In this document: positions 426-61,191 of the stretch, one piece after another | How the letters are laid out: each line of letters opens with the position of its first letter | How positions within the stretch are numbered: the stretch's first letter is position 1 | Assembly (NCBI GenBank): GCA_036519295.1 | Contig: DATDLN010000046.1 | Location: 606-64,605, forward strand | Length of the DNA stretch: 64,000 bases | Reading direction: 5' to 3' | Source of the DNA: Thermoleophilaceae bacterium | Lineage (GTDB): Bacteria; Actinomycetota; Thermoleophilia; Solirubrobacterales; Thermoleophilaceae | The notes under the pieces: generated by a model | The model's database searches: none | Seen by the model: only the letters and a program-made list of their open reading frames with translations | What the model was told of the DNA's origin: nothing | Translations under genes and position numbers: made by a program

Positions 426-2385
426 CCAGCGATTCGGCGAGGAGCGTCGAGACGTCCACGACGCGCAGCTCGTCGCCGCGCTGGCGCACGCCGTCGTCGA
501 GCATCACTGTGCAGAAGGGGCAGGCGACCGCGAGTGTGTCGGCGCCCGTCTCGGCCGCCTGGCGGGCCCGCTCCTCGTTGATCTTGCCGCCGCGTTCCTC
601 CATCCACATGTGGGCCCCGCCGGCGCCGCAGCAGAAGGTGCGCTTACCGCTGCGCTCCATCTCGATCGGGTCGCCGACCGCCGCGACCAGCTCGCGCGGG
701 GCGCCGCGCACGTCGTTGTGGCGGGCCAGGTAGCAGGAGTCGTGGTAGGTGATCGTGCGCTCGTCGCCGTTCGGCTGCAGCCGTCCCTCGCGGACGAGCT
801 CGGCCAGCAGCTCCGTGTGGTGGACCACCTCGTAGTGGCCGCCGAAGTCCGGGTACTCGTTGGCGAGCGTGTTGAAGCAGTGTGGGCAGCTCGCCACGAT
901 CTTGGTGACGCCTGCTTCGGCAAGGGTGCCCACGTTCTGTTCCGCGTACGCCTGGAAGAGGTACTCGTTGCCCATCCGCCGGGCCGGGTCGCCGGTGCAG
1001 GACTCGCGCGGGCCGAGGATCGCGAAGTCCACGCCGGCGGCCTTCAGCAGCTTGGCGGTCGACTCGGCGGCGATGCGCGCGCGCTCGTCGAAGGACGCCG
1101 CGCAGCCCACCCAGTAGAGCACCTCGGGCGCCGGGTCGCCGGGTTCGAGGACTCGAAGGCCGAGCCGCTCGGCCCAGTCGCCGCGCTCGGTCTGCGGCTT
1201 CCCCCAGGGGTTCGAGGCACGCTCAACGTCGCGGAGCATCTGCTCGGCCTCGCCGGGGAAGCGGGAGTCCACCATCACCAGGTGGCGGCGCAGGTCGATG
1301 ATGTGGTCCACGTGCTCGATCGACACCGGGCACTCCCGGACGCATGCGCCGCAGGTAACGCAGTCCCAGACCACGTTGTCGCTGACCGCGCCCGGCACCA
1401 GCGGCTGCGGCTCGAATTCCCCGTCGGGGCGGCGAAGCAGCTTCGGCCCCTCCTCGAAGACCTGGTCGCGCAGGGCCATGATGAGCAGCTTCGGCGACAG
1501 CTCCTTGTCCGTGTTCCAGGCGGGACAGACGTCCTGGCAGCGCCCGCACTCGGTGCACGAGAAGGTGTCCATCGTCTGCTTCCAGGTGAGGTCGGGCACC
1601 GTGCCCGCACCGAAGCGCATCTCCTCCTCGGGAACGTCGAAGCGCAGCGGCTCAATCCGGCCGCCGGGGCGAGTGTGTCCGAAGTAGACGTTCACCGCCG
1701 CGGTGAAGATGTGGAGGTGCTTGGAGTGGGGGAGGTAGGCGAGGAAGGTGAGGATGATCAGGACGTGCGCCCAGACGAACACTCGCTCGAGCACCTCGGT
1801 GACGGAGTCGTCGCCGAAGATGCCGGACAGCGCGTTGGACACGGGAGACCAGTCGGCCGGCCACTCGTTAAGGCCGAGCGCTATCCGCGTGGCGTGCCAT
1901 AGCAGCAGCGTCGTGACGATCCCCGCGATCAGGGCCAGGATGAGGTCGGCCTCGCCGAGGTGGCTGCCCTCGAAGCGAGCCGGGCGCTGGAGCTTGCGGA
2001 TGACGACCGCCGCCGCTACGCCGATCAGCACGAGCACCGCGAAGACGTCCACCAGCAGCGCGAACCAGCCCTGGTGACCGAGCCATGGCAGCGTGGACTC
2101 GCGGTCCACGGCGCTGATCATGGCGATCACGATCGTCGGGAACAGGACCAGGAAGCCCCAGAAGATGGCCGCGTGCATCAGCCCTGGGCCGAACCGCTGG
2201 AGGAGCTTGCGCTGCCCCAGCACGATCGTCGCCTCGTTGCGGACGCGCTGCGGCACGTCGCCGAAACGCTCGCTCGGCTTGCCGAGCCGGACGAGGTCCA
2301 CGAGGAGCTTGGAGCGGCGCGCGAACAGAGTGCCGCTCACGGCGAGGGCCAGCGCGAGCGCGATCGCTCCGAGCAGGACGTCTAT
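415..2385 (-). CDS. etfD: EtfD-like membrane-bound Fe-S oxidoreductase (candidate ETF:quinone oxidoreductase)
   Basis: C-terminal ~656 aa of ORF 415..3477. Two ferredoxin 4Fe-4S motifs (CTECGRCQDVCP, CVTCGACVRECP), CCG-type Cys motifs (FCCGAGG), and N-terminal TM helices (AAIFWGFLVLFPTIVIAMI, LLVDVFAVLVLIGVAAAVV). The N-terminal ~360 aa of the ORF is an out-of-frame shadow of etfA. The start is unclear. The first canonical start is GTG 2340, but the hydrophobic helix IDVLLGAIALALALA and high GC3 continue up to ATA 2385 / CTG 2376. Confidence 0.8.
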   Translation of the reverse strand: MDVLLGAIALALALAVSGTLFARRSKLLVDLVRLGKPSERFGDVPQRVRNEATIVLGQRKLLQRFGPGLMHAAIFWGFLVLFPTIVIAMISAVDRESTLPWLGHQGWFALLVDVFAVLVLIGVAAAVVIRKLQRPARFEGSHLGEADLILALIAGIVTTLLLWHATRIALGLNEWPADWSPVSNALSGIFGDDSVTEVLERVFVWAHVLIILTFLAYLPHSKHLHIFTAAVNVYFGHTRPGGRIEPLRFDVPEEEMRFGAGTVPDLTWKQTMDTFSCTECGRCQDVCPAWNTDKELSPKLLIMALRDQVFEEGPKLLRRPDGEFEPQPLVPGAVSDNVVWDCVTCGACVRECPVSIEHVDHIIDLRRHLVMVDSRFPGEAEQMLRDVERASNPWGKPQTERGDWAERLGLRVLEPGDPAPEVLYWVGCAASFDERARIAAESTAKLLKAAGVDFAILGPRESCTGDPARRMGNEYLFQAYAEQNVGTLAEAGVTKIVASCPHCFNTLANEYPDFGGHYEVVHHTELLAELVREGRLQPNGDERTITYHDSCYLARHNDVRGAPRELVAAVGDPIEMERSGKRTFCCGAGGAHMWMEERGGKINEERARQAAETGADTLAVACPFCTVMLDDGVRQRGDELRVVDVSTLLAESLDGD

Positions 2386-3350
2386 GGCCCGCGCGCCTTC
2401 CTCAACTCGGCGGTGAGCGCGGGGACGATCTCGCTCAGGTCGCCGATCACCGCGTAGTCGGCGCTCGCCAGGATCGGCGCCTCGGCGTCGCTGTTGATCG
2501 CAAGGATCTTCTTGGCCCCCTTGCAGCCCGCAATGTGCTGCGTGGCCCCGCTGATGCCGCACGCTATGTAGAGGTCGGGCGAGACCTTGGTGCCCGTCTG
2601 GCCAACCTGGTCGGTGTGCGGCCGCCACCCGGCGCTCGTCACGACCCGCGAGCAGCCCACAGCGGCGCCCAGCAGATCGGCGAGCTCCTCGAGCATCCCG
2701 AACCCGTCCGCGGAGCCGACGCCGCGGCCGCCGCTCACGACCACCTTGGCCTCGGCGAGCGAGACGCCGGTTGTGACGGTGCTCTCGTGCTCCGCCACCT
2801 GGACGAGGAGGTCGGACTCGCCGAGGGTGGGAGTGAACGCCTCGACCGCCGGGGCCTCGGCTCCATTCACGTCCGTTGCCGGGACCATGTGGGGAGCGAC
2901 CGAGAGCAGCGTCGGCGCGCCGTGGATGCGAGCCTCCTCGAGCAGGCTCCCACCCCAGCGCACCCGCGTGACCGTGAGCGGGGAGCCTCCGGCGACCTCG
3001 GTGCAGTTCGCGGCGAAGGGGAGATCCCGGAGCGCCGCCACGTGGGCCAAGACCTCGTTGCCCCGGTTCGTGCCGGCGGCCACGACGGCGCTGGGCTCGA
3101 GCCGCTCCACGAGCTCGACCACGCTCTGCGCCCACGCTCCCGGGGCGTAGGCGGCGACCCGCTCGTCGTCGGCGACGTGCGCGCTCCCGACGCCCTGGCC
3201 GGCGAGCTGGGCGGCGGCCTCGCGGGCTCCGTCGCCCACGAGCAGCGCGTGGAGCGGCTCCCCGGAGGCGAGGTTGCGGGCGAGGGTGAGGGCCTGGAGC
3301 GACAGCTCGTCGACGTTGCCGTCCTGATGCTCTATGAGCGTCAGCACCAT
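2382..3350 (-). CDS. etfA: electron transfer flavoprotein alpha subunit
   Basis: From M66 of ORF 2382..3545: MVLTLIEHQDGNVDELSLQALTLARNL... The C-terminal FAD-binding region reads VVSGGRGVGSADGF...PDLYIACGISGATQHIAGCKGAKKILAINSD. Confidence 0.9.
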   Translation of the reverse strand: MVLTLIEHQDGNVDELSLQALTLARNLASGEPLHALLVGDGAREAAAQLAGQGVGSAHVADDERVAAYAPGAWAQSVVELVERLEPSAVVAAGTNRGNEVLAHVAALRDLPFAANCTEVAGGSPLTVTRVRWGGSLLEEARIHGAPTLLSVAPHMVPATDVNGAEAPAVEAFTPTLGESDLLVQVAEHESTVTTGVSLAEAKVVVSGGRGVGSADGFGMLEELADLLGAAVGCSRVVTSAGWRPHTDQVGQTGTKVSPDLYIACGISGATQHIAGCKGAKKILAINSDAEAPILASADYAVIGDLSEIVPALTAELRKARGP

Positions 3351-3574: not shown

Positions 3575-4339
3575 CTACGCCACCCCCAGCTCGCGCATGA
3601 CCTCAACCACCGCCGGCGCGGCCTCGGGCCCCCGGCCCAGGATCTCCGCCTGCTTCCCCTGCCCAGGTGGCACCACGAGCCGCACCATCTCGAGCCGCGG
3701 CTCGGGCCGCTCGGGCGTGCTCGTCTCGACGGGCTTCTGCCGGGCCCGGAGCTTCGCCGGCACCGACGGGTAGCGGGGCAGGTTGATGCCCTCCAGCACC
3801 GTCACGACGGCGGGCAGGGGCACGAGGTAGATGTCGCGGCCCCCGGTGACCTCCTGCTCGCAGCGGGCGCGACCGTCCTCGATCGACAGGCCCTTCAGCC
3901 CGGTCACGACCGGACGGCCGAGCGCGTGGGCGACTCGGATTCCCACCTGGAAGTTGCCGGAGTCGGCCGACTCGTTGCCGAAGATGATCAGGTCGAAGTC
4001 TCCGCCCGCGGCTCGCTCCGCCTCGATCGTGGCGAGGATCGCGCCGGCGGTGGCCTGCGGATCCCACTCCTCGCCGTCCGTGGCCAGCAGGATGCCCCGA
4101 TCGGCGCCCGCCGCCAGCGAGTCGCGCACCTGTTCCTCGGCCTCGGGCGGGCCGAGCGTCAGGACAGTGACCTCACCGCCGTGCTGCTCCACCAGCTGCA
4201 CTGCCTGCTCCACTCCGCACTCCTCGTGGGGGCTGATCGTGAAGCCGAGGTGGCGCGTCTCGAGCGCCCGCTCGTCGGCCGTCAGGACCATCCGCCCGCC
4301 GGTGAGGGGCACGCGCTTGACGCAGACGAGGATCCTCAT
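3575..4339 (-). CDS. etfB: electron transfer flavoprotein beta subunit
   Basis: C-terminal 254 aa of ORF 3575..5140 starting MRILVCVKRVPLTGGRMVLTADERALETRHLGFTISPHEECGVEQAV. The ATG at 4339 overlaps the TGA of the upstream dehydrogenase (ATGA). Confidence 0.9.
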   Translation of the reverse strand: MRILVCVKRVPLTGGRMVLTADERALETRHLGFTISPHEECGVEQAVQLVEQHGGEVTVLTLGPPEAEEQVRDSLAAGADRGILLATDGEEWDPQATAGAILATIEAERAAGGDFDLIIFGNESADSGNFQVGIRVAHALGRPVVTGLKGLSIEDGRARCEQEVTGGRDIYLVPLPAVVTVLEGINLPRYPSVPAKLRARQKPVETSTPERPEPRLEMVRLVVPPGQGKQAEILGRGPEAAPAVVEVMRELGVA

Positions 4340-7525: not shown

Positions 7526-8251
7526 TCAGCGCGTGAACGCCACCACGATCTCGCGTTGGAACGCGAGAATGTGCTCCTTCATAAGTTCACGGGCGCGGGG
7601 ACCGTCGCGGGTGAGCAACGCTTGAATCATGTCCCGTTGGTCGTGGACCGCGGTCCAAAGTCCGGGGACGCGGTCGAGCACGAGGTACCAGATCCGAAGA
7701 GACAGCGCAAAGTAGCGCTCGAGGGTGTCGACCAGATAGGGGTTGCCCGCCGCCTCCCAGGCGAGGCGGTGAACGCGCTCGTCGATGCGCATCAGCGCGG
7801 GGCTGTCCTGAGGATCGAGCTCCTCGAGCTCCGCCAACAGGGCCTCGGCCTCGCCGCTGCGCTCGTCGTCCATTCGCATCGCCGCGAGCTGGGCCGCGTG
7901 GCCCTCGAGCTCGGCGCGAACCTCGGTGATGTGGACGATGTCGGCCACGTTGACCTCGGTGACGTACGTGCCGCGGCGCGGCCGGACCTCGACCAGGTTC
8001 TCGAGCGCCAGCCGCTTGATCGCCTCGCGGAGTGGCGTGCGGCCGATCTCGAGCTCCCTCATCAGCCCGTCCTCGACCAGTGCGGACCCGGGTGGCAGGC
8101 GCAGAGTCACGATGCGGTCCCGCAGCTCGAAATACGCCCGTTCGGCGATCAGGCGGACCGCGGGCCGGCCCACGAAACTGCTCTCGGTCGGCGACGGCGA
8201 GGCGGGTTGACCGCCAACGTCCCAACGTGATATTTCAGACTCGTGCGCCAA
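7526..8251 (-). CDS. GntR-family transcriptional regulator with FadR-type C-terminal (FCD) domain
   Basis: wHTH LMRELEIGRTPLREAIKRLALENLVEVRPRRGTYV followed by a helical FCD-like domain. The first ~26 codons have low GC3, so GTG 8173 is a plausible true start. Confidence 0.85.
   Translation of the reverse strand: MAHESEISRWDVGGQPASPSPTESSFVGRPAVRLIAERAYFELRDRIVTLRLPPGSALVEDGLMRELEIGRTPLREAIKRLALENLVEVRPRRGTYVTEVNVADIVHITEVRAELEGHAAQLAAMRMDDERSGEAEALLAELEELDPQDSPALMRIDERVHRLAWEAAGNPYLVDTLERYFALSLRIWYLVLDRVPGLWTAVHDQRDMIQALLTRDGPRARELMKEHILAFQREIVVAFTR
8228..8238. promoter_or_regulatory. TGATATTTCAG, one-mismatch copy of the recurring motif (site 2)
   Basis: Read directly. It lies in the gntR/metF divergent region if gntR starts at 8173. 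A half-site ATATCA also occurs at 8334..8339, 15 nt before the metF GTG. Confidence 0.4.
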
Positions 8252-8354: not shown

Positions 8355-9251
8355 GTGAGCTTGATCGAGTCGCCCGAGCGTTCCAGCACCCACGCGAGCG
8401 AAGCCGAGTCCCGACGGGCGTTGATCGAGGCGTTGAAGCGCCCCCGCTACGAGATCCTGCCGCTCGACGGGATCGCAGACGAGGTCGAGGCGCAGGTGCC
8501 GCGCGGGGTCAAGCTCACGGTCACGGCATCTCCCCGGCGGGGTCTAGACGCGACCCTCGAGCTCGCGGAGCGCCTGAGCGGCGCCGGCTATGCGGTCGCG
8601 CCGCACGTGTCCGCGCGCCTCGTCCCCGACGCCGCTCACCTGAAGGACCTGGTGCGGCGCCTTCGCTCCGCGGGGATCGACGACATGTTCGTGATCGCCG
8701 GCGACACGAGCGAGCCGGCGGGCGAGTTCGAAGGGGCTGCCGCCCTCCTCAAGGCGATGGGCGAGCTGCGCGAACGCTTCTCCGAGGTCGGTATCTCGGG
8801 CTACCCCGAGAGCCATCACGTGATCAGCGACGAGAACACCATCGAGGCCATGTTCGAGAAGGAGCCGATGGCCACGTACATCGTCAGCCAGATCTGCTTC
8901 GAGGCCGACGTGATCGAGACCTGGGTTCGCCGTGTGCGCGCCCGAGGCACCTTCCTCCCCATCTGGATCGGAGTGCCGGGAACCGTCGATAACCGCAGGC
9001 TGCTGCAGATCTCCCGGAAGATCGGGCTGGGCGAGTCGGCGCGCTTCCTCAGGGCGCACGGCGGCTGGGTGCGGCGCCTCGCCCTCCCGCGCCGCTACAC
9101 GCCCACCACCCTGGTCAGGGACATCGCGCCCTCGATCGCCGACCCTGGCGCACGGATAGCGGGCTTTCACATCTATACCTTCAACGAACTCGAGCGCACC
9201 GAGGAATGGCGGCGGCAGCTCGTCGAGCAGCTGATCGCACAGCACGAGTAG
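8355..9251 (+). CDS. metF: methylenetetrahydrofolate reductase family protein
   Basis: 298 aa, GTG start. MTHFR-like features read in the translation: RYEILPLDG...VKLTVTASPRRGLDATLELAERLSGAGYAVAPHVSARL...IDDMFVIAGD...ISGYPESH...QICFE. Confidence 0.75.
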   Translation: MSLIESPERSSTHASEAESRRALIEALKRPRYEILPLDGIADEVEAQVPRGVKLTVTASPRRGLDATLELAERLSGAGYAVAPHVSARLVPDAAHLKDLVRRLRSAGIDDMFVIAGDTSEPAGEFEGAAALLKAMGELRERFSEVGISGYPESHHVISDENTIEAMFEKEPMATYIVSQICFEADVIETWVRRVRARGTFLPIWIGVPGTVDNRRLLQISRKIGLGESARFLRAHGGWVRRLALPRRYTPTTLVRDIAPSIADPGARIAGFHIYTFNELERTEEWRRQLVEQLIAQHE

Positions 9252-9276
9252 GTCGACAGAAGGAGGAGCACCCACC

Positions 9277-10473
9277 GTGGCAGAGATCAACGAGCACCCC
9301 GGCATCCTGCTCTACACGCGTATCCGGAAGTCGCCGTACTTCTACGCGTCGCGGCGCCACGGCGTGCAGCTCTACAGCGTCTACAACCACACCTACCACC
9401 CGCGGCACTACGGCGATCCCGTCGAGGAGTACTGGCAGCTGCTGAACGGGGTCACGCTCTGGGACGTGGGCGTCGAGCGCCAGATCGAGATCAGCGGGCC
9501 CGACGCGTTCGATTTCACCAACCTGCTCGTCGCGCGCGACCTCAACAAGTGCGAGGTCGAGCAGTGCAAGTACGTGTTCAACTGCCTGCCCGACGGGGGG
9601 ATCATCAACGACCCGGTGCTGCTGCGCGTCGAGGAGAACCGCTTCTGGCTCTCGCTCGCCGACAGCGACGTGGAGCTCTGGGCCAGGGGCGTGGCCTACA
9701 ACTCCGATTACGACGTCGAGGTCAAGGAGATCGACGTCGGACCGGTGCAGGTGCAGGGGCCGAAGTCGAAGGACGTGATGGTCGACCTCTTCGGCGAGAG
9801 GATTCTCGAGATCCCCTACTACTTCCTCCGTCCCTTCGAGCTCAACGGCATGAAGGTGCTCGTCTCGCGCACCGGCTACACCGCCGAGCTGGGCTACGAG
9901 ATCTACCTCTACGACGCCAGCAAACACGGCGTGAAGCTCTGGGAGGCCGTGCTGGAGGCGGGCAAGCCGCACGACCTGGCCGTGATCGGCCCGTGCCACA
10001 TCCGGCGAATCGAGGGCGGCATCCTCGCCCTTGGGTGCGACATGTGGTACGACACGAATCCCTACGAGGTCGGCATGGGCTACGACTGGATGGTCGACCT
10101 GGAGCAGGGCTCCGACTTCATCGGCAAGGAGGCGCTCCACCGCATCAAGGAGGAGGGGCCGAAGCGCAAGCTGGTGGGAGTCGAGATCGGCGGCGACCGG
10201 CTCGGCGCCTACAACGACGGCACGATGATCGACGTCTTCCCCGTGCATATGAACGGCGGGCGAGTCGGCGAGGTGACCTCGGCCTGCCACTCGCCGCGGC
10301 TCGAGAAGAACATCGGCTACGCGATGGTCCCGATCGAGCACAGCGAGCTCGGCACGGAGTTCGAGGTGGAGCGGCCCGACGGAACGGCGTCGGCGGTGGT
10401 CGTCGAGAAGCCGTTCATCGATCCGAAGAAGGAGACGCCGAAGCAGCAGCTCGCCACGGGCCAGGGGACCTGA
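9277..10473 (+). CDS. stand-alone GcvT-family aminomethyltransferase-fold protein, DmdA-like THF-dependent demethylase candidate
   Basis: 398 aa, preceded by the strong SD AAGGAGGAG. Sequence reads YNHTYHPRHYGDPVEEYWQLLNGVTLWDVGVERQIEISGPDAFDF...GGIINDPVLLRVEENRFWLSLADSD...GPVQVQGPKSKDV...SRTGYTAELGYEIY...IRRIEGGILALG...FIGKEAL. It has no FAD domain. Confidence 0.75.
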   Translation: MAEINEHPGILLYTRIRKSPYFYASRRHGVQLYSVYNHTYHPRHYGDPVEEYWQLLNGVTLWDVGVERQIEISGPDAFDFTNLLVARDLNKCEVEQCKYVFNCLPDGGIINDPVLLRVEENRFWLSLADSDVELWARGVAYNSDYDVEVKEIDVGPVQVQGPKSKDVMVDLFGERILEIPYYFLRPFELNGMKVLVSRTGYTAELGYEIYLYDASKHGVKLWEAVLEAGKPHDLAVIGPCHIRRIEGGILALGCDMWYDTNPYEVGMGYDWMVDLEQGSDFIGKEALHRIKEEGPKRKLVGVEIGGDRLGAYNDGTMIDVFPVHMNGGRVGEVTSACHSPRLEKNIGYAMVPIEHSELGTEFEVERPDGTASAVVVEKPFIDPKKETPKQQLATGQGT

Positions 10474-11282
10474 GCACCGCGGTCCACACCCTCTCCGGCC
10501 CGCTCGACGACGAGCGGCGCGGAGAGCTTGTCTTCCGAGGCGACCTGCTCGTCTTCAAGCGGGTGCCGCCGCTGCTCGAGGCGGCGCGCTTGGTGGATGC
10601 TCTGATCGGAGCGGCGCCCGGCCCGCCGGACTTGGCCGCAATCGACGAGCTTCAGCGAGACGTTCGGACAGACCCCCGGATGAAGGAGCTCTTCCGCGCG
10701 GCGCTCGAGCACCTGGGCGTCGACCCGGCCCGGAGCTACTGGGACTCCATCTACCTGCGCGTCGTGCCGCCGATCGAGCGGGGCGCCGAGCGACAGATTG
10801 GGAGGATCGGGTTCCATCGCGACACGTGGTCGTCCAACGTGCTCCAGCAGACGAACTGGTGGACGACGATCCGTCCGCTCGCCGCCGACCGCACGATCGC
10901 CTTCTATCCCGACTATTGGTCCCGGCCGATCGCCAACACGAGCGCGGATTGGGATCTCGACGAGATCCGCGCCCTCCGCAGGAGCGGGGAGCGCGACGAG
11001 GACATAGCGATCGTGCCGGAGCCCAGCGAGCCGGTGGACACCTCGTCGGAGCTTCGGATCGTGATCGAGCCGGGCGATCTCCTCTGCTTCTCCGGGGCGC
11101 ACCTGCACGCGAGCGTGCCCAATGTGTCGGAAAGAACGCGGGTCAGCGTCGAACTTCGAACGGTGAACCTTGACGACCTGGCGCAGGGTCGCGGCGCCCC
11201 AGACATCGACGGACGGGCCCCGAAGGTTCCGCTGGGGTGGTTTCGGTCGATGGAGGACGGGTCGCAGCTGCGGCCGCCTTAG
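10470..11282 (+). CDS. Fe(II)/2-oxoglutarate-dependent oxygenase-like protein (PhyH-like)
   Basis: C-terminal part of ORF 9549..11282. HxD...H...RxS arrangement: GFHRDTW ... GAHLHASVPNVSERTRVSVELR. High GC3 begins right at the stop of the upstream gene. There is no ATG/GTG/TTG in frame before GTG 10563; CTG 10470 overlaps TGA 10471. Confidence 0.6.
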   Translation: MSTAVHTLSGPLDDERRGELVFRGDLLVFKRVPPLLEAARLVDALIGAAPGPPDLAAIDELQRDVRTDPRMKELFRAALEHLGVDPARSYWDSIYLRVVPPIERGAERQIGRIGFHRDTWSSNVLQQTNWWTTIRPLAADRTIAFYPDYWSRPIANTSADWDLDEIRALRRSGERDEDIAIVPEPSEPVDTSSELRIVIEPGDLLCFSGAHLHASVPNVSERTRVSVELRTVNLDDLAQGRGAPDIDGRAPKVPLGWFRSMEDGSQLRPP

Positions 11283-11926
11283 AGCCGCGCGTCGCGCTCG
11301 TGCACGAGACGCCAGGCGCGCACTCGCCGGCCGGCGCCCGTAAGCGCCGCCACGCTGCCGCGACCGTGGGCTTCGAGGTGGGTGGCCAGGGCGAGGAACG
11401 CCTGGGCCGTCGTGAGGGCGTCGCCCTCGGCGTCGTGCGGGCGATGCGCCGGGAGCCCGAGCGAGGCGGCGACGTCGCCGAGCGAGCGCGAGCCGGAGTC
11501 GCCCTCGCCGCGCTCGATGCCCAGCAGGCGCCAAAGCAGTGCGGTATCGACCGCCGGGCGAGGCGGCAGGCGCTCGAGCGGCCCGCGGTGGGCGCGTAGG
11601 AACGCGCGTTCCACCCCCACCACGTGGGCCACCAGGGTACGGTGGCGCATCGCGCCCATCAGCGGCATGAGCGCCTCCGGGGGCGGCGGCGCTGAAGCCA
11701 GGTCCTGGGCGCGCAGGCCGTGGATCTGGATCGAGCGCGGGGACAGCGAAGCCGCCGGCCGCACCAGCCCGCTCACGGCGCCCCCGGCGAGGATGCGCCC
11801 CTCTTCCACGGGGATCGCCGCGTAGGAGATCACCTCGTCGCGCCGGGGGTCGAGTCCGGTTGTCTCGACGTCGACCACGACGAAGCGGGCCGCCCGCCAG
11901 GAGGTCCGCCAGGGGAGGGGCCTCAC
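11279..11926 (-). CDS. DEDDh 3'-5' exonuclease (DnaQ/PolIII epsilon-like)
   Basis: 215 aa. Exo I FVVVDVETTGLDP, Exo II-like LVAHVVGVERAFL, Exo III HRPHDAEGDALTTAQAF. Confidence 0.8.
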   Translation of the reverse strand: MRPLPWRTSWRAARFVVVDVETTGLDPRRDEVISYAAIPVEEGRILAGGAVSGLVRPAASLSPRSIQIHGLRAQDLASAPPPPEALMPLMGAMRHRTLVAHVVGVERAFLRAHRGPLERLPPRPAVDTALLWRLLGIERGEGDSGSRSLGDVAASLGLPAHRPHDAEGDALTTAQAFLALATHLEAHGRGSVAALTGAGRRVRAWRLVHERDARL

Positions 11927-13761
11927 CGTCCGGACAGCCCGAGCTTGAGCGCGACTCCCCGCTGTACCTTCGCTACGGCGCGAAACGCCTCCTTGAGGGA
12001 GGTGCGGGTGAGCGGGGCGAGGCGCTCCGGGTCGATCAAGTCGTCGGGCGGCAGTCCCTCCCGCAGCCGTCCCACGTGGTGCTCCATACGCAGCGCGCAG
12101 ACGAGCTCGAAGGCGTCACGCAGGACCGCCGCGTCGTCGGCCTCGAGCGTCCCTTCCGCTTCGGCGGCCTCCAGTCGCGCCCGGGTAGACGCCGCGGTCA
12201 CCCCGGATGCCAGCCCGGCCCAGCGCGCCAGCGACTCGATCGGGATCAGCCCGCCGCGCTTGATGTCGAGCCTTCCCTTGCGCTCGCCGCTCGACTCGAG
12301 CACGAAGTGGCGGAAGAAGCCGGTGGGTGGACGCTCGGCAAGCGCGGCGATGGCAAGCCGGCGCAGCGTGCGGTCGCGCCGTGGAATCCCGGCGAAGGCG
12401 GCGGCGAGCCGCTCGGCCGCCGTGGTGGCCCCCCATACCGCGGCGCTCTCCACGACGACCCCCAGAAGCATCAGGCCGCGACCCCGGTCGGGATCCTCGA
12501 GCCACTCCTCGGCCGCCCGCTCCCATTCGATGATCGACCGCGCGAATAGCGGGTTCGATGCCACCGCCCCGCGGCCGTCGGGAACCAGTCCGCTGGCCGA
12601 CAGCCCCGCCAGCACCCGCCTGGCCAGCGCGAGCATGCTTTCCCGCGGGCCCGGATCGTCGCCGCCGTCCCAGGCGAGCGCGCAGTCGACGTCCGAGCCA
12701 GGGAAGGGCTCACGGCGGCCGAAGCTGCCGAGCGCAAGCCAGGAGTAGGGCACGGGGGGCGGGCCAAGCTCCTCGTGCGCAATCTCGATCAGGCGGCGGG
12801 TGACGGTGTCGTGGATGCTCGCGATCATTCGGCTGATCACCGGCGCGGGGACGTCCCCGTCGTACAGCGCAATCACCGTCTGCGGGAGCTCGGTCGCCGC
12901 CTCGGCCACGCCGGCGGCATCCTTGCTGCGTGCGATCAGCGATCGGAGGTGGAAGGGGGCGCGCCGCTCGCTCGCCATCAGGTCCACGTCGTCGATCACC
13001 CCGATCAGCTGACCGCGCGCCTCGAGCACCAGCAGGTGCCGAACGCCGTGGTCGAGCATTTCGACCAGCGCCTCCGAGGCCGTGGTGTCGGCCGTCACCG
13101 TCCGCGCCGGTGCGGTCATGATCTCCGCGAGCGGCGTGTCGGGTGCGGCGCCCGCGGCGACGACCCCGGTGCGGATGTCGTGGTCGGTCACGATGCCGTG
13201 CCCGTCGCCGAGGTCCGTGACGACGCACGAGCGCCCCTTCTCGACCATTCGCTGTGCCGCCTCCTGTACGGGCGTGGCGGGTGGGCAGACGAGCGCCGGC
13301 GCGCGGATGAGCTCGCGCACCACACGGCCCGTGGCGGATGGCGGGGGTTCAGGCTCGGGGCTCGCGAGCAGCCGCCCCTCGCGCGTCAGCGACGCCGCGA
13401 GGAAACGCACCGCCGCCGGTCGCTCGAGCACCGGGCGAATCGCGCGCTCCGGAATGCGGTAGACGAGCGTGTCCTCGGCGGCGCGCGCGACGAATCCCAG
13501 CGGGCTCTCCGCGAGCAGGGAGGCGAACCCGAACATCTCGCCCTCGCCGACGAGGTCGAGCAGCCGGCCGCCGCTCAAGAGCTCCACCGACCCGCGCCTC
13601 ACGACGTAGGCGAACTCGGCCGTCGCCTCGGCGCTCTCGAGGATCGGCGCGCGGGCGGCATGGAACTCGATCTCGGCAGCGGCGGCGACGCTCCGGAGCG
13701 CCTCCTCGTCGAGCGTGTCGAAGGGAGGGTGGCGCTGAAGAAACTCGGCGATGTCGTACAT
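11923..13761 (-). CDS. cNMP-binding + tandem CBS + DUF294-type nucleotidyltransferase signalling protein
   Basis: 612 aa. N-terminal cyclic-nucleotide-binding-like segment (GEGEMFGFASLL), a CBS pair (VTDLGDGHGIVTDHDI... / LLVLEARGQLIGVIDDVDL), and an NTase motif (LALGSFGRREPFPGSDVDCAL). It overlaps the exonuclease start by 4 nt. Confidence 0.75.
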   Translation of the reverse strand: MYDIAEFLQRHPPFDTLDEEALRSVAAAAEIEFHAARAPILESAEATAEFAYVVRRGSVELLSGGRLLDLVGEGEMFGFASLLAESPLGFVARAAEDTLVYRIPERAIRPVLERPAAVRFLAASLTREGRLLASPEPEPPPSATGRVVRELIRAPALVCPPATPVQEAAQRMVEKGRSCVVTDLGDGHGIVTDHDIRTGVVAAGAAPDTPLAEIMTAPARTVTADTTASEALVEMLDHGVRHLLVLEARGQLIGVIDDVDLMASERRAPFHLRSLIARSKDAAGVAEAATELPQTVIALYDGDVPAPVISRMIASIHDTVTRRLIEIAHEELGPPPVPYSWLALGSFGRREPFPGSDVDCALAWDGGDDPGPRESMLALARRVLAGLSASGLVPDGRGAVASNPLFARSIIEWERAAEEWLEDPDRGRGLMLLGVVVESAAVWGATTAAERLAAAFAGIPRRDRTLRRLAIAALAERPPTGFFRHFVLESSGERKGRLDIKRGGLIPIESLARWAGLASGVTAASTRARLEAAEAEGTLEADDAAVLRDAFELVCALRMEHHVGRLREGLPPDDLIDPERLAPLTRTSLKEAFRAVAKVQRGVALKLGLSGR

Positions 13762-13823: not shown

Positions 13824-13866
13824 GCGGCACCGGGCTCCGGACGGCAACGTCCCCGCACCGAAGCCC

Positions 13867-14874
13867 TTGACGAGGAGGAGGGGAGCGACGCTGCGCAAGC
13901 TGAGAGGAGCGAGAGCATTTGCCGGCCTCGCGGTCATCGGCACGGCTCTCGTGCTCTTCGGCGCCGGCTGCGGGGACGACGAGCCGGCCGCCGGCGAGAA
14001 ACCCGGCGAGGGGGAGACGATCAGGATCGCGGTCAACCCGTGGACCGGGTCGGCGGTCAACGCGAACGTGGCGAAGATCCTCCTCGAGCGGGAGCTCGGC
14101 TACAAGGTGGAGCTCGTGAAGATCGACGAGAACAGCCAGTTCCCGGCCATCGCATCGGACGAGCTGGACGCCTCGCTCGAGGTCTGGCCCTCGGGACACG
14201 CGGCCGACATCAACCGCTATATCGAGGGCCGACGCGGCGGCCCGCTCCGGGACGGCGGAATCGTCAACGACGGCAACCTGGGGATCATCGGGAACATCGG
14301 CTGGTGGGTTCCCAACTACCTGCTGAAGGACCATCCCGAGCTCGCCCGCTGGCAGGGACTCAAGGGCAACGAGGACTTGGTGAACGGCGAGTTCCTCGCC
14401 GGGGACCCGACGTTCGTGTCCTACGACAGCGAGATCATCAAGAACCTCGGCCTCGACCTGAAGATCGTCAACACCGGCTCCGAGCGAGCCCTGCTGCAGG
14501 CCATCGACAAGGCCTACAAGGCGAAGCAGCCCTTCCTCACCTACTTCTACACGCCACATTGGGCGCACCGGAAGTACGACCTCACGGAGGTTCAGCTCCC
14601 GGCCTACGACGAGCACTGCGAGGAAGCCGCGCGCGATCACGACGGCAAGGGCTACGACTGCGACTACGCCAACGACGTCCTCTTCAAGATGGGGTGGCTG
14701 GGGCTGCAGGACAAGGCGCCTGAGGCGGCCAGTTTTCTCGAGAAGTTCAACTACTCGACCGACGATCAGCAGGAGATCGCCTTCGAGGCGGACGCTCAAG
14801 GCATGCCAATCCGACAGGCCGCGGAGCAGTGGATCGATCAGAACCCGGACGTCTGGCGGAAGTGGCTCTCGTGA
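13867..14874 (+). CDS. glycine betaine/choline-type ABC substrate-binding lipoprotein (OpuAC/ProX-like), orphan
   Basis: C-terminal part of ORF 12775..14874. Lipoprotein signal ...AFAGLAVIGTALVLFGAGC, and Trp-rich binding-site segments NPWTGS, LEVWPSG, GWWVPNY. The start is either TTG 13867 (no SD) or CTG 13891, which follows the strong SD GGAGGAGGGGAG. Confidence 0.8.
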   Translation: MTRRRGATLRKLRGARAFAGLAVIGTALVLFGAGCGDDEPAAGEKPGEGETIRIAVNPWTGSAVNANVAKILLERELGYKVELVKIDENSQFPAIASDELDASLEVWPSGHAADINRYIEGRRGGPLRDGGIVNDGNLGIIGNIGWWVPNYLLKDHPELARWQGLKGNEDLVNGEFLAGDPTFVSYDSEIIKNLGLDLKIVNTGSERALLQAIDKAYKAKQPFLTYFYTPHWAHRKYDLTEVQLPAYDEHCEEAARDHDGKGYDCDYANDVLFKMGWLGLQDKAPEAASFLEKFNYSTDDQQEIAFEADAQGMPIRQAAEQWIDQNPDVWRKWLS

Positions 14875-14922: not shown

Positions 14923-16503
14923 GTGGCGACGGAAGTTTCTGACGCCCACTCGGACGAGCTCGCCGAGTTCGGCTACAAGCAGGAGCTCGACCGCAGCATC
15001 GGGAAGTTCGCCAGCTTCGCGGCCGGCATCAGCTACATCTCGATCCTGACGGGCGTCTTCCAGCTCTTCTTCTTCGGATTCGCGATCGGCGGGCCGGCCT
15101 ACTGGTGGACGTGGCCGATGGTCTTCGCCGGCCAGGTGATGGTGGCCCTCTGCTTCGCGGAGCTGGCCGCCAACTTCCCTGTGGCCGGGTCGATCTACAA
15201 CTGGGCCAAGCGCCTGGGCACCGCGACGATCGCGTGGCTGGGCGGCTGGATGATGCTCACCGCCTCGGTGGTCACGCTCTCCGCAGTGGCCCTCGCCTAC
15301 CAGTACACGCTGCCCCAGATCTCCTCGGCGTTCCAGTTCGTCGGCGACGGGACCGGCAAATACGACTACGCCGGCAACGCCGTCCTTCTCGGGACGGTGC
15401 TGATCCTGTTCACGACGATCATCAACGCCCTGGGCGTGAAGCTGATGGCACGGATCAACAGCGCCGGCGTGTTCATCGAGCTGGTCGCAGCGGTGCTGCT
15501 GATCGTCCTGCTCGCGGCCAACATCACGCGCGGCCCCGATGTGCTGTTCGATACGCAGGGCACCGGTGAAGGCCACAGCTGGGGCTATCTCGGCGCCTTC
15601 TTGACCGCGGCGCTCGCCTCCGCCTACGTGATGTACGGCTTCGATACCGCCAGCTCGCTCGGCGAGGAGACCGTAGACCCGCGCCGCACTGCGCCGACCG
15701 CGATCATGCGCGCGGTCATCGCCTCCTTCCTGCTCGGCGGCGCGATCCTGCTGTTCGCCATCCTCTCGGTGAGCAACATCAACTCCCCCGAGATCGCGAA
15801 GGGCGGGCTTCAGTTCGTGGTCCTCGACGTGCTCGGCGACACCATGGGCAAGGTCTTCCTGGTCTGCGTGGCCATCGCGGTAACGGTCTGCTGCCTGGCC
15901 GTGCACACGGCCACGATCCGGATGATGTTCGCCATGGCGCGCGACAACAACCTGCCGGCGGGAGAGCGGCTCGCGAAGGTCCACCCGAAGACCAAGACGC
16001 CGATCATTCCCGCCGTCCTGATCGGCTTCCTCGGGGTCCTGATCCTGGTTGTGAACATCAAGCAGCCGCAGATCTTCACCGTCATCACGAGCATCGGGAT
16101 CATCATGATCTACATCGCCTACCTGCTCGTGACGGTGCCGACGCTCTTCAGCCGGCTACGCGGCGAGTGGCCCCCGAAGGACGCGAAGGAGAAGGGCTAC
16201 TTCTCGCTCGGGAAGCTCGGCCTTCCGATCAACATCCTCGCGGTCGTGTGGGGAGCGGGCATGGCGATCAACCTCGCCTGGCCACGCAAGGACGTCTACA
16301 ACGCGACCGAGCCCTTCCACTGGTACCTCCAGTACGGCGCGATCCTGTTCATCGGCGTCGTCTTCTTCGGCGGACTGGCGTACTACTGGTTCGTACAGCG
16401 CCACAAGACGGGCGTTCTGGCCTCGCACGCGATAGAGGCCGGCGCGCCGGCCGGGGCGGGCCCGGCGGTGCGGCCGGCTCCGGCCTCATCCTCCCCGGAG
16501 TAG
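14923..16503 (+). CDS. APC-superfamily amino acid/choline-type permease
   Basis: 526 aa, about 12 hydrophobic helices, with the N-terminal signature FASFAAGISYISILTG...AELAANFPVAGSIYNW. Confidence 0.85.
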   Translation: MATEVSDAHSDELAEFGYKQELDRSIGKFASFAAGISYISILTGVFQLFFFGFAIGGPAYWWTWPMVFAGQVMVALCFAELAANFPVAGSIYNWAKRLGTATIAWLGGWMMLTASVVTLSAVALAYQYTLPQISSAFQFVGDGTGKYDYAGNAVLLGTVLILFTTIINALGVKLMARINSAGVFIELVAAVLLIVLLAANITRGPDVLFDTQGTGEGHSWGYLGAFLTAALASAYVMYGFDTASSLGEETVDPRRTAPTAIMRAVIASFLLGGAILLFAILSVSNINSPEIAKGGLQFVVLDVLGDTMGKVFLVCVAIAVTVCCLAVHTATIRMMFAMARDNNLPAGERLAKVHPKTKTPIIPAVLIGFLGVLILVVNIKQPQIFTVITSIGIIMIYIAYLLVTVPTLFSRLRGEWPPKDAKEKGYFSLGKLGLPINILAVVWGAGMAINLAWPRKDVYNATEPFHWYLQYGAILFIGVVFFGGLAYYWFVQRHKTGVLASHAIEAGAPAGAGPAVRPAPASSSPE

Positions 16504-16510
16504 GGCCGGC

Positions 16511-17980
16511 GTGGCCACCCGCATGTTCATCGACGGCGAGTGGTGCGACGCCGCGAGCGGCGCCACCGTCGAGGCCACGAGCCCGGTGACGGGGGAGTCG
16601 CTCGGCCCGGTGGCGGACGGGGACCGCGAGGACGCACGCCGCGCGATCGCGGCGGCGGGCGCCGCCTTCAACGCCTGGGCGGCGCGGACCGGGTTCGAGC
16701 GCGCCGCGCTGCTCCACCGCGCCGCGGATGCCTGCGAGCGCCGCCGCGACGAGCTCGCCCGCGTCTGCACGCTCGACCAGGGCAAGCCGCTCAAGGCCGA
16801 GGCCGAGGTGGAGGTCGGCGAGCTGATCGAGTTCTTCCGGATGGCGGCCGAGGACGCCAAGCGCCTCGAGGGGCGAATTCCCGAGAGTGCGGCGCCCGGA
16901 AGGCGGGTGCTCCTGCTGCGGCGGCCTGTCGGGGTGCTCGGGCTCATCACCCCCTGGAACTGGCCGTACACGATGCCGGCAGAGGTGCTGGCGCCGGCGC
17001 TGGGGTGCGGCTGCACCGTCGTATGGACGCCCGCGCCCTCGACGGCGGTGTGCTCGGGCGTCCTCGCGGAATGCGTCGCCGAGGCGGACTTCCCGCCCGG
17101 CGTGTTCAACTTCGTGCTCGGACCCGGCCCGGAGGTCGGGGACGAGCTGGCCGTGAACCCCGACACTCAGGCGGTCGCCTTCACCGGTTCGACGCAGACC
17201 GGGATGATCGTCTCGCGCCAGGCCGCCGGCAAGATCCAGCTGCTCGAGATGGGCGGTAACGGGCCCTTCGTGGTGATGGACGACGCGGACCTCGATGCCG
17301 CGGCAGAGGCGGCGCAGGTCGGCTGCTTCCTGGGCGCCGGTCAGAGCTGCTCGGCCGCCGAGCGCCTGCTCGTGCACGAAGCCGTGCGCCAGGAGTTCGT
17401 GGCCCGCCTGGCGGCGCAGGTCGAGCGCGACGTCCGGCTCGGCGATCCGCTGGAGGAGGCCACCACGCTCGGCCCGCTCAACAACGAGCCGGGCGCCGCC
17501 AAGATGGACGAGCACGTCGCCGACGCGGTGGAGCGCGGCGCCGAGGTCGTTGCGGGCGGCGCGCGCGCCGACGGCTTTCCCACCCGGCTGTATTGGCCCG
17601 CGACCGTGCTCGACCGGGTGCCCCCGGACTCGATCGCCGTCACCCAGGAGACCTTCGGCCCGATCGCGCCGATCGTGTCGATCGGGTCCCTCGAGGAGGC
17701 CATCGAGCAGACGAACTCCCAGTCGTTCGGTCTCATGGCGGCGATCTTCACGGGCGACGTGGGGGCCGGCCTGCGCTACGCGGATTCGGTCCACATGGGG
17801 CTCGTGAACATCAACGAGACGACCAACTACTGGGAGGCCCACCTCCCGTGGGGCGGCCGCGGCCGCTCCGAGAGCGGCATCGGGCGTGTCGGCGGCCGCT
17901 ATCCGATGGAGACTCTCACCGAGCTTCAGACGGTGCTCATCCGATCAGAACCCCCGCTACCCCCCGGGAGGGCTTCATGA
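16511..17980 (+). CDS. NAD(P)-dependent aldehyde dehydrogenase, betaine-aldehyde dehydrogenase candidate by context
   Basis: 489 aa. Catalytic motifs LEMGGNGP and [11 protein letters not shown]. Its stop overlaps the betA start (ATGA). Confidence 0.85.
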
Positions 17981-19656
17981 CTTCGCACTACGACTTCGTC
18001 ATCGTCGGCGGCGGCTCGGCGGGCTGCGCGCTGGCCAACCGGCTGTCGGCGGATCCGGCCAACCGGGTGCTCGTGCTCGAGGCCGGGCGGCCGGACTGGT
18101 CGTGGGACGTTTTCATCCACATGCCGGCGGCGCTCGCGTTCCCGATCGGGAACCGCTTCTACGACTGGAAGTACGAGTCCGAGCCGGAGCCCTACATGGG
18201 TGGCCGGCGGGTGTACCACGCGCGCGGGAAGGTCCTCGGTGGATCGAGCAGCGTCAACGGCATGATCTTCCAGCGCGGCAACCCGATGGACTACGAGCGC
18301 TGGGCCTCGGGCGACGGCATGGAGACCTGGGACTACGCCCACTGCCTGCCGTACTTCAAGCGCATGGAGAACTGCCTGGCGGCGCGGCCGGACGATCCGT
18401 TCCGCGGCCACGACGGTCCGCTGGTGCTCGAGCGGGGCCCCGCCCGCGGTCCCCTCTTCGACGCCTTCTTCGCGGCGGTGCAGGAGGCCGGCTACGACCT
18501 GACGGAAGACGTGAACGGCTACAAGCAAGAGGGGTTCGCCCCCTTCGACCGCAACGTGCACGACGGAAAGCGGCTTTCGGCGGCCCGCGCGTACCTGCAT
18601 CCGGTCATGGATCGGCCGAACCTGAAGGTCGAGACCTTCGCGTTCACGACCAAGGTGCTGTTCGAGGGGAACCGTGCGGTCGGCGTCGAGTACACGCGCT
18701 ACGGGCGTCGCAAGGAGGAGGCGCGGGCCGGCGAGATCGTTCTCTGCGGCGGGGCGATCAACTCGCCTCAGCTGCTCCAGCTCTCCGGCGTGGGGGCCGC
18801 GGGCGAGCTGCGCCCACTCGGAATCGACGTCGTCCACGACCTGCCCGGTGTGGGCGAGAACCTCCAGGATCACCTCGAGGTCTACGTCCAGCACAGCGCG
18901 ACCCAGCCGGTCTCGATGGCGCCCTACTTCCTGATGAAGAACCGGCCCAAGGTCGGCCTCGAGTGGCTCCTGCGCAAGTCCGGCCCGGGCGCCACGAACC
19001 ACTTCGAGGCGGGCGGCTTCGTGCGCAGCAACGAGGACGTCAAGTGGCCCAATCTCATGTACCACTTCCTCCCGATCGCGGTGCGATACGACGGGACGCT
19101 GCCGCCGGGCGGAGGCGGCCACGGCTATCAGGTGCACGTTGGCCCGATGTACTCGGACGTCCGCGGCACCTGCAAGATCGTCAGCGCCGACCCGGGCCAG
19201 CATCCCGCGCTGCTCTTCAACTACCTCTCGACCGAGAGCGACCGGCGCGAGTGGATCGAGGCGATCCGGGTGACGCGCAAGATCCTGTCCCAGCCCGCCT
19301 GGGCGCACCTCGACGGCGGCGAGATCTCGCCCGGCGCCGAGGTCGACAGCGACGACCAGATCCTCGATTGGGTGAGGAAGGATGCCGAGACGGCGCTGCA
19401 TCCCTCGTGCACCTGCCGGATGGGAACCGACGACCTGGCCGTGACCGATCCATCGTCCCTACGCGTGCACGGCACCGAGGGCCTGCGCGTGGTGGACGCC
19501 GCGGTCTTCCCCTACGTCACCAACGGGAACATCTACGCGCCGGTCATGATGGTCGCGGAGAAGGCCGCGGACGTGATCCTCGGGAACACCCCGCTGGCGG
19601 CCGAGCCGGTCGCGTACTACCGGCACGGGGAGGAGGCGGCAGCGCCGGCCGCGTAG
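17977..19656 (+). CDS. betA: choline dehydrogenase (GMC oxidoreductase)
   Basis: 559 aa from [37 protein letters not shown]. Also [18 protein letters not shown] and the C-terminal GMC signature HPSCTCRMG...[11 protein letters not shown]. Confidence 0.9.
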
Positions 19657-23319: not shown

Positions 23320-23341
23320 CCCTCTCCCTCCTTTGCCGCAA

Positions 23342-23362
23342 GCACTCGGCTCGGCCGAGTGC
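23342..23362. terminator. hairpin GCACTCGGC-TCG-GCCGAGTGC downstream of the metallophosphoesterase gene
   Basis: Perfect 9-bp stem between stop 23373 and the next gene's SD. Confidence 0.45.
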
Positions 23363-23372
23363 GCGCGGATTG

Positions 23373-30385: not shown

Positions 30386-30407
30386 GCCGGGAGAATAACC
30401 GTGTAGG

Positions 30408-31250: not shown

Positions 31251-31266
31251 ACGCCGCAGTGCAAGC

Positions 31267-45748: not shown

Positions 45749-45749
45749 G

Positions 45750-51987: not shown

Positions 51988-52039
51988 GGCTGAGCCTCCG
52001 CCGAGGCGCGCCGGAGGCGAAGGAGTGAGCGATCAACGC

Positions 52040-57261: not shown

Positions 57262-57272
<11 letters not shown>
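55908..57272 (-). CDS. mak: maltokinase (Pep2/Mak)
   Basis: 454 aa. [13 protein letters not shown]..., [18 protein letters not shown], kinase-like [13 protein letters not shown]...[13 protein letters not shown]...[13 protein letters not shown] overlap with glgB. Confidence 0.85.
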
Positions 57273-59036
<1,764 letters not shown>

Positions 59037-59040
<4 letters not shown>

Positions 59041-61172: not shown

Positions 61173-61191
61173 TCAGTGCCGTAATCCCCAA

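Follow-up and report, generated by a model that had tools for sequence, protein, structure and literature searches.

In soils and brines, few osmolytes and methyl-group sources are as abundant as glycine betaine and choline. To our knowledge, three enzyme systems have been described that remove the first methyl group of glycine betaine: BHMT, a zinc enzyme that uses homocysteine; the Rieske monooxygenase GbcAB/BmoAB; and the corrinoid system MtgBCD, whose final methyl acceptor is tetrahydrofolate (THF). Many genomes with betaine clusters show none of the three. Here we analyse a choline and betaine cluster on a 64-kb stretch of DNA from a Thermoleophilaceae bacterium (assembly GCA_036519295.1, contig DATDLN010000046.1, positions 606 to 64,605; hereafter the window), in which a stand-alone DmdA-like protein of the GcvT fold is encoded directly behind a homologue of methylenetetrahydrofolate reductase (MTHFR). 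The best explanation of this arrangement, which we hold to be moderately probable from sequence comparison, is that the DmdA-like protein acts as a glycine betaine:THF N5-methyltransferase, with the MTHFR, of the flavin-independent Mfr type, oxidising its 5-methyl-THF.

The proposed net step, glycine betaine to dimethylglycine, is the same as that of BHMT, GbcAB/BmoAB and MtgBCD, and the proposed acceptor is that of MtgBCD. However, none of these enzymes is homologous to the DmdA-like protein, and the proposed route would proceed without homocysteine, O2/NADH or corrinoid. The closest described model is DmdA (EC 2.1.1.269), the dimethylsulfoniopropionate (DMSP) demethylase of Pelagibacter ubique and Ruegeria/Phaeobacter, which, like the window protein, consists of GCV_T and GCV_T_C domains alone (about 370-400 aa). 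DmdA transfers a methyl group from a methyl-onium compound to N5 of THF, forming 5-methyl-THF, and this is the chemistry proposed for the window protein. DmdA comes from marine Alphaproteobacteria and uses a sulfonium donor, whereas the window protein comes from a terrestrial actinomycetote and its proposed donor would be a quaternary ammonium. The operon logic is shared with LigM/DesA-MetF-LigH of Sphingobium lignivorans SYK-6 and with other pairs of a THF-dependent demethylase and a type-4 MTHFR, in which the adjacent MTHFR oxidises 5-methyl-THF (PMC11868366); relatives of the window pair also carry FTHFS or PurU/FolD. LigM and DesA act on aryl methyl ethers and their MTHFR is an FAD enzyme with specific motifs, while that of the window is of the flavin-free Mfr type, characterised so far only in the reductive direction. 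The folate domains of DMGDH/DMGO (dimethylglycine dehydrogenase and oxidase), SoxA and Tdm share the fold as well; each of them is joined to an oxidising or lyase module, by fusion or in a complex, and yields 5,10-methylene-THF, whereas the window protein stands alone and is paired with an MTHFR.

A betaine-specific member of this fold was originally predicted to be undescribed. Indeed, we found no description of a THF-dependent betaine demethylase in NCBIfam release 20 or in the literature, of which our coverage was incomplete. For SAR11 bacteria, aminomethyltransferases beside metF or a betaine transporter have been the subject of genomic speculation only (PMC3160333), and in haloarchaea dimethylglycine-oxidase genes lie near BCCT transporters, with no enzyme assigned to the first step (PMC3102087).

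Results

The DmdA-like protein is related to DmdA but forms a clade of its own

The only Pfam domains of the window protein are GCV_T (residues 39-268) and GCV_T_C (297-382), with no FAD, flavin or oxidase domain; this is the stand-alone architecture expected of THF-dependent methyltransferases of the DmdA/LigM/DesA kind. Its best family match is the DmdA equivalog NF009133, which it fails at 341.6 bits against a cut-off of 410. An orthologue at locus L080 also fails (358.3 bits), whereas two true-DmdA representatives pass (P0192, 438.7 bits; P0189, 478.9 bits). This division is general: representatives of the true-DmdA clade reach the cut-off, and the window clade and the other DmdA-like clades fall short of it. 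Pelagibacter DmdA is the best solved relative (3tfh; 254.6 bits, 37% identity). The folate domain of the trimethylamine N-oxide (TMAO) demethylase Tdm is the second-best family, with 228.8 bits in NCBIfam and 178.1 bits against PDB 9q59, and the LigM and DesA models match remotely (48.9-69.6 bits).

Homologues were collected from 1.84 billion representative proteins and placed in neighbour-joining trees with 100 bootstraps, with Pelagibacter as the proven DmdA reference and Phaeobacter as the roseobacter representative. The window protein falls into its own clade (90-96% bootstrap), distinct from the Pelagibacter core DmdA clade (80-87%) and also from a wider, weakly held group (55-57%) that contains the annotated dmdA of Phaeobacter inhibens DSM 17395. 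Twelve positions show a conservation pattern that departs from that of true DmdA, among them Y40, H41, Y181, Y182 and E204; Q158 is likewise specific to the clade. In DSM 17395, dmdA stands with genes for an acyl-CoA dehydrogenase, dmdD and an AMP-binding protein, in the order dmdC-D-B-A; no dmdB/C/D-type gene was found in the window or in the 80 related loci described below. Because it lies under the equivalog cut-off and in a separate clade, the window protein is, by sequence, not an orthologue of true DmdA. The resemblance to DmdA noted in the original prediction is correct as to the nearest family and does not extend to true DmdA itself.

Two further readings of the sequence found no support. 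As a glycine cleavage T-protein, the window protein scores under both GcvT models (TIGR00528, 153.3 against 235.85 bits; NF001567, 182.1 against 300 bits). A signature separating methyl from methylene transfer at the catalytic-Asp motif of GcvT proved not diagnostic: the window protein has INDP, as DmdA does, but nearly all DmdA-like representatives share this motif irrespective of their gene neighbourhood, and the adjacent Asp is kept. The window protein has matches in at least 7,997 database clusters at E<=1e-30, and public annotation of its clade is generic, for example 'glycine cleavage system aminomethyltransferase T'. Among the longer DmdA-like proteins there are fusions to AMP-binding, SnoaL, methyltransferase or OCD domains and tandem duplications, and none to MTHFR or DAO.

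The partner is an Mfr-type MTHFR

The gene upstream ends with a TAG at 9249-9251, followed by a gap of 25 nt that holds a Shine-Dalgarno sequence, AAGGAGGAG, 8 nt 5' of the GTG start of the DmdA-like gene at 9277. The sequence thus bears out the predicted arrangement, with a 398-aa protein lacking an FAD domain encoded closely behind an MTHFR homologue and near a GntR regulator. The MTHFR homologue clears the Pfam MTHFR cut-off (37.7 bits against 24). Its best PDB match, at 114.5 bits compared with at most 38.6 bits for MTHFRs of the FAD type, is the Mycobacterium smegmatis enzyme 7xg9, a flavin-independent MTHFR (Mfr). The catalytic glutamate (Glu9 of hMfr, in an E-I/L-x-P motif) is kept, with YEILP aligned to LEITP (PMC11094777). 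By relationship, the window enzyme is therefore assigned to the flavin-independent Mfr type, of the MSMEG_6649/hMfr kind. The MetF precedent of the original prediction is sound for the pairing of the genes and has to be given up for the FAD-type enzyme.

Orthologues of the window MTHFR, 42-49% identical, adjoin the DmdA-like gene in Gaiellaceae, in locus L093 and in haloarchaea. Displacement of the partner by a non-orthologous MTHFR was ruled out, as the partners in L086 and L093 are also Mfr-type; the MTHFR of Lichenihabitans alone is very divergent (25% identity to that of the window). In L085, a 333-aa open reading frame (ORF) 5' of the DmdA-like gene was considered as an MTHFR and rejected, having no match to that or any other family.

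The gene pair is conserved among genes for choline and dimethylglycine oxidation

The window encodes BetA, candidate proteins for choline uptake and betaine-aldehyde oxidation, and an 846-aa dehydrogenase of the dimethylglycine/sarcosine family with its electron-transfer flavoprotein (ETF), as predicted originally and now borne out by Pfam and NCBIfam matches (Table 1). The predicted gap in the pathway also holds at this scale: the ORFs scanned in the 64-kb window include no BHMT (PF02574), Rieske or MttB protein, and none of its six frames contains a Rieske motif.

One scan of 185,579 species genomes yielded 80 loci with a DmdA-like gene at 74-91% identity to that of the window (best tblastn segment), and genes were counted in these by tblastn with the window proteins, with flanks of 8 kb. 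At least 58 of the 80 have MTHFR, and in 43 it is no more than 400 nt away from the DmdA-like gene (upstream in 25, downstream in 18); most of the loci seemingly without it have an arrangement that places MTHFR just past EtfD, where the 8-kb flank ends. The MTHFR coupling expected of the DmdA/LigM/DesA kind is thus present at the genomic level. DMGDH/ETF is found in 53 loci, with the ETF genes co-linear with DMGDH in 45-46, a BetA-like or GbsB choline dehydrogenase in 49 and a GntR homologue in 21. A BHMT-like (PF02574) gene occurs in two of the 80 and a Rieske oxygenase gene in none.

At least five gene orders occur across these loci, and the linkage survives repeated reshuffling. They include (DmdAL and PhyHL, the DmdA-like and PhyH-like genes; ALDH, aldehyde dehydrogenase; FeADH, iron alcohol dehydrogenase) MTHFR-DmdAL-(PhyHL)-ALDH-BetA; DMGDH<-...->DmdAL-BetA; and, on a single strand in L014 and L028, DmdAL-DMGDH-EtfB-EtfA-EtfD. 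In the Gaiellaceae-type locus L080, a DMGDH-EtfB-EtfA-EtfD run on one strand comes first and, beyond about 1 kb of intervening sequence, DmdAL-MTHFR-FeADH-ALDH follows, and a 71%-identical representative shows APC-FeADH-ALDH-x-DmdAL-DMGDH. The iron alcohol dehydrogenase of L080 clears the GbsB choline-dehydrogenase equivalog (589.5 against 550 bits), so that two unrelated choline-oxidising systems, BetA in the window and GbsB in L080, are tied to the same DmdA-like/MTHFR pair. Conserved linkage in several gene orders across Thermoleophilia gives strong comparative-genomic support to the idea that the pair supplies the step from betaine to dimethylglycine. The cluster also occurs in complete genomes, for example OY970298.1 and OY969904.1.

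Relatives beyond Thermoleophilia

Two clade members at 61% identity (L081 and L093) stand in the arrangement IclR / DAO-DmdAL-PF02574-MTHFR(Mfr type)-SoxB-SoxD..., and an OsmF-like betaine ABC importer adjoins in L093. The DAO protein, of 448 aa, is not the N-terminal half of a DMGDH, and the PF02574 protein fails the BHMT model (98.6 against 338 bits). Together, the PF02574 protein and the Mfr-type MTHFR of these loci (L081, 4166-5212; L093, 11206-13185) resemble the YitJ-type bifunctional enzyme in split form (148.9-150.6 bits against NF006396).

A sister clade (96% bootstrap) contains MTHFR-DmdAL-FTHFS operons (L086) and proteins of cultured haloarchaea. A plasmid of Haladaptatus salinisoli carries FDH-FTHFS-FolP-DmdAL-GlyA-MTHFR, two DMGDH-like genes and IlvA (L099, 371-20693), and pHH406 of Haloarcula hispanica carries DHFR-DmdAL-MTHFR and two DMGDH-like genes (L097, 8167-19236); the DmdA-like genes of the two are LIX00_RS18585 and HISP_RS18390, respectively. 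A Halomicrococcus plasmid has BCCT-IlvA-FolD-MTHFR-DmdAL-FolD, with no DMGDH-like gene within the stretch fetched (L098, 2400-12709). The MTHFRs of Haladaptatus and Haloarcula are 42-43% identical to that of the window and that of Halomicrococcus 45%; for the dehydrogenases of Haladaptatus and Haloarcula, identity to the window DMGDH is 34-35%. Taken together, the haloarchaeal plasmid islands look like a complete route from betaine to pyruvate in cultured organisms.

Elsewhere, a Lichenihabitans plasmid carries MTHFR / DmdAL-purU-folD. Plasmids of Phaeobacter inhibens P88 (L095, 9004-13082) and Loktanella salsilacus (L101, 7974-12121) carry Lrp / DmdA-like-OsmC-enoyl-CoA hydratase-acyl-CoA synthetase, with DmdA-like proteins about 51% identical to that of the window. 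This operon differs from the dmdC-D-B-A-type operon of DSM 17395 and may serve a second pathway for demethylation of onium or thioether acids in roseobacters.

A proposed route from glycine betaine to dimethylglycine

We propose the following mechanism. Choline would be imported and oxidised by BetA to betaine aldehyde, from which the aldehyde dehydrogenase would form glycine betaine. The DmdA-like protein would then pass a single N-methyl group from glycine betaine straight to N5 of THF. Dimethylglycine and 5-methyl-THF would result from this redox-neutral methyl transfer, which resembles those catalysed by DmdA on DMSP and by LigM on vanillate. The co-transcribed Mfr-type MTHFR would oxidise 5-methyl-THF to 5,10-methylene-THF, which could enter C1 oxidation or assimilation. 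Finally, the 846-aa dehydrogenase would act together with ETF and the EtfD-like protein to oxidise dimethylglycine and possibly sarcosine.

With the gene identities, the operon structure, the phylogenetic separation from DmdA and the conserved linkage in hand, we infer the substrate and the 5-methyl-THF product, as well as the oxidative direction and the electron acceptor of the Mfr-type enzyme. The product is suggested by the pairing with an MTHFR, as in ligM-metF-ligH and other demethylase-MTHFR pairs (PMC11868366), and the MTHFR/FTHFS/FolD arrangements of the relatives (L086, Lichenihabitans, haloarchaea) are what would be expected if the DmdA-like enzyme makes 5-methyl-THF that needs oxidation. 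The substrate is suggested by operon linkage with DMGDH (L014, L028, L085) and with BetA or GbsB, which makes betaine the intermediate in need of an enzyme.

Several points weigh against this proposal. Compared with a sulfonium, a quaternary ammonium gives up a methyl group far less readily, and the known betaine methyltransferases rely on a Zn-thiolate (BHMT) or on Co(I) (MtgB). Reisch et al. are said to have reported in 2008 that DmdA does not accept glycine betaine. Characterised Mfr enzymes reduce methylene-THF with NADH, and textbook redox potentials put the energy cost of the NAD+-linked oxidation of methyl-THF at about 23 kJ/mol under standard conditions. Among the relatives, the arrangement of L081 and L093 is also compatible with a BHMT-like enzyme plus a split dimethylglycine oxidase, an amine oxidase gene overlaps the DmdA-like gene in L084, and L082 has DmdAL-Rieske-ferredoxin. 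The CoA-ligase/hydratase context at about 51% identity in Phaeobacter and Loktanella indicates that the substrate varies within the family and is not to be read from homology alone.

This last point leads to an alternative that we consider unlikely, namely that the window protein is a THF methyltransferase of the DmdA/LigM kind for another methyl-onium or methoxy substrate (choline, DMSP or another sulfonium, proline betaine, carnitine or trigonelline), linked to betaine only by a shared osmolyte regulon. The MTHFR pairing supports methyl transfer in general, the subclades evidently differ, as the enoyl-CoA hydratase and acyl-CoA synthetase genes of the Phaeobacter/Loktanella operon illustrate, and the generic public annotation of the clade is compatible with it. 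However, dmdB/C/D-type genes did not appear in the window or the 80 loci, the operons of L014, L028 and L085 link the gene directly to DMGDH and others to BetA or GbsB, and the Haladaptatus and Haloarcula islands hold two DMGDH/SARDH-like enzymes, to which that of Haladaptatus adds GlyA and IlvA, the rest of a route from betaine to pyruvate.

Alternatively, the DmdA-like protein may be a folate-binding partner that captures, as 5,10-methylene-THF, the formaldehyde or iminium set free by an oxidative demethylase (the PhyH-like protein, a DAO protein or DMGDH). Such capture is what GcvT-like domains do in DMGDH, SoxA and Tdm, the Tdm folate domain is the second-best match, relatives adjoin oxidases (the DAO gene of L081 and L093 and the genes of L084 and L082 named above), and in the window the PhyH-like gene is translationally coupled to the DmdA-like gene. 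Yet the window DMGDH has a GCV_T domain of its own, the PhyH-like gene is missing in 65 of the 80 loci, window-type clusters have no DAO partner, and a methylene-THF product would not account for the close, ancient pairing with MTHFR, while betaine to dimethylglycine in the window would be left without an enzyme; we regard C1 capture as rather unlikely. The automatic annotation, a glycine cleavage T-protein degrading glycine derived from the pathway, is very improbable. It has the public names of the homologues and the shared fold in its favour, but the protein lies under both GcvT cut-offs and is closer to DmdA than to any T-protein, and gcvH/gcvP did not turn up among the annotated genes of the window or the examined loci, although no search was aimed at them.

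A methyltransferase coupled to a methyl-THF-oxidising Mfr thus seems to us the most economical model for the window-type clusters and for the Haladaptatus and Haloarcula islands, and we lean towards it. The broader claim is one on which we see the arguments evenly balanced: that this is a fourth route of betaine demethylation, independent of oxygen and of the cofactors named above, in which a GcvT-fold enzyme moves an ammonium N-methyl group to THF with a dedicated oxidative subfamily of Mfr enzymes, widespread in Thermoleophilia, which are abundant Actinomycetota of soil, and in haloarchaea, and supplying their unassigned first step. If true, this would be a new enzyme activity that extends GcvT-fold chemistry from sulfonium and aryl-ether to ammonium donors, and it would give a catabolic role to Mfr-type MTHFRs, on which work to date has concerned the reductive direction and their value as a drug target in mycobacteria. 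The C1 flux from betaine would go to methyl-THF rather than to formaldehyde or methionine, with no need for O2, corrinoid or homocysteine cycling, and the annotation of thousands of 'glycine cleavage T protein' entries, the clusters counted above, could be corrected. Since a related island occurs in cultured, genetically tractable haloarchaea, the idea is directly testable.

The putative PhyH-like oxygenase is an optional accessory

The third ORF of the operon encodes a PhyH-like protein that scores 21 bits against PF05721 (cut-off 22); 22 of 23 homologues match this family at E<=0.01. The HxD...H...RxS motif noted originally, with a putative iron triad and 2-oxoglutarate-binding Arg, stands: H116/D118, H211/H213 and R224/S226 are invariant across the 23 homologues. 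The AlphaFold model is poor, with a mean predicted local distance difference test score (pLDDT) of 55, and derives from a shallow alignment of sequences at least 67% identical.

The start of this ORF had to be corrected. It has no ATG, GTG or TTG before 10563, yet 31 residues upstream of that point are conserved, and the conserved N-terminus begins at a CTG at 10470 that shares nucleotides with the TGA stop codon of the DmdA-like gene (CTGA). This overlap is retained in 13 of 14 tightly coupled homologous loci. CTG is the probable start, and the overlap suggests either a non-canonical start or termination-reinitiation.

The PhyH-like gene occurs in 15 of the 80 loci, and a 68%-identical homologue is located in an unrelated gene context. 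The putative oxygenase is an optional accessory with a translationally coupled gene, not a conserved part of the system. Of the originally predicted operon for the missing betaine step, the DmdA-like and MTHFR genes have thus gained in weight, through their several gene orders in choline and dimethylglycine operons, the association with BetA or GbsB and the haloarchaeal recurrence, while the oxygenase drops out.

Gene map of the window and neighbouring genes

The window has a G+C content of about 70%, and the nearest relatives of its genes are from metagenome-assembled Thermoleophilaceae and Solirubrobacterales. Genes were mapped by GC3-guided ORF calling with Pfam and NCBIfam scans of the 64-kb window (Table 1).

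Table 1. Features of the choline and betaine cluster, with positions in the window
Feature	Position	Strand	Evidence and remarks
EtfD-like Fe-S/CCG oxidoreductase	415-2340	-	Pfam CCG, Fer4
EtfA	2382-3350	-	Pfam ETF, ETF_alpha
EtfB	3575-4339	-	Pfam ETF
Dimethylglycine/sarcosine dehydrogenase-family flavoenzyme, 846 aa	4336-6876	-	DAO, FAO_M, GCV_T, GCV_T_C
GntR/FCD regulator, divergent	7526-8251	-	Pfam GntR + FCD; start at 8251 or 8173
Sigma-70-like promoter match (weak evidence)	8207-8234	+	TTGACC-16-GATATT, divergent intergenic region
Mfr-type MTHFR homologue	8355-9251	+	298 aa, GTG start, Pfam MTHFR
Shine-Dalgarno AAGGAGGAG	9260-9268	+	Within the gap between the MTHFR and DmdA-like genes, read from sequence
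Stand-alone DmdA-like GcvT-fold protein, 398 aa	9277-10473	+	GCV_T + GCV_T_C
PhyH-like Fe(II)/2-oxoglutarate oxygenase (predicted)	10470-11282	+	Weak PF05721, conserved HxD...H...RxS
DEDDh exonuclease + cNMP-binding/CBS/DUF294 nucleotidyltransferase pair	11279-13761	-	
OpuAC-type lipoprotein substrate-binding protein	~13849-14874	+	PF04069 143 bits; start uncertain
APC-superfamily permease, candidate choline importer	14923-16503	+	AA_permease_2
Aldehyde dehydrogenase, candidate betaine-aldehyde dehydrogenase	16511-17980	+	Aldedh 466.6 bits
BetA choline dehydrogenase (GMC enzyme)	17977-19656	+	TIGR01810 808.1 > 732.1 bits; NF002550 853.4 > 605

PDB matches of the 846-aa dehydrogenase are DMGDH/DMGO, and it has its own folate domain (GCV_T, GCV_T_C); EtfB, EtfA and the EtfD-like protein are its electron outlet. 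In the divergent intergenic region, one sigma-70-like promoter match was observed where 0.2 was expected. Between the two halves of the choline cluster lies the DEDDh exonuclease and cNMP-CBS-DUF294 pair, which also adjoins the cluster in L060 and L076. The OpuAC-type protein, whose translation shows a signal peptide and a lipobox, adjoins the APC permease, with no ABC permease or ATPase close by. The permease matches TIGR03428 and TIGR00907, each under its cut-off, and the aldehyde dehydrogenase is under the cut-off of the betaine-aldehyde dehydrogenase (BADH) model, with 347.7 bits.

Downstream, a metallophosphoesterase and a second APC permease are neighbours on the minus strand (21676-24314). 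The same pair leads the choline operon of L085 (307-2902), and the permease comes after betA in L003 and L005; the pair may provide a phosphocholine or glycerophosphocholine esterase with an importer feeding the pathway. About 30 kb from the cluster, next to a LysR gene (40071-40979), a short (371 aa) MetE-like 'core' methionine synthase is encoded on the plus strand (41009-42124; NF005085, 471 against 313), which could be a consumer of methyl-THF. The segments 29216-34545 and 45047-46316 hold the 4-hydroxybenzoate/protocatechuate branch of the beta-ketoadipate pathway, with pobA, a pcaIJ-like CoA transferase, a pcaB-like lyase, a CMD-like protein, IclR and pcaHG. An alpha-glucan block of the GlgE pathway extends over 47945-62451, with GlgB, a Pep2-like maltokinase, TreS, GlgE, MalQ and three amylase-family genes.

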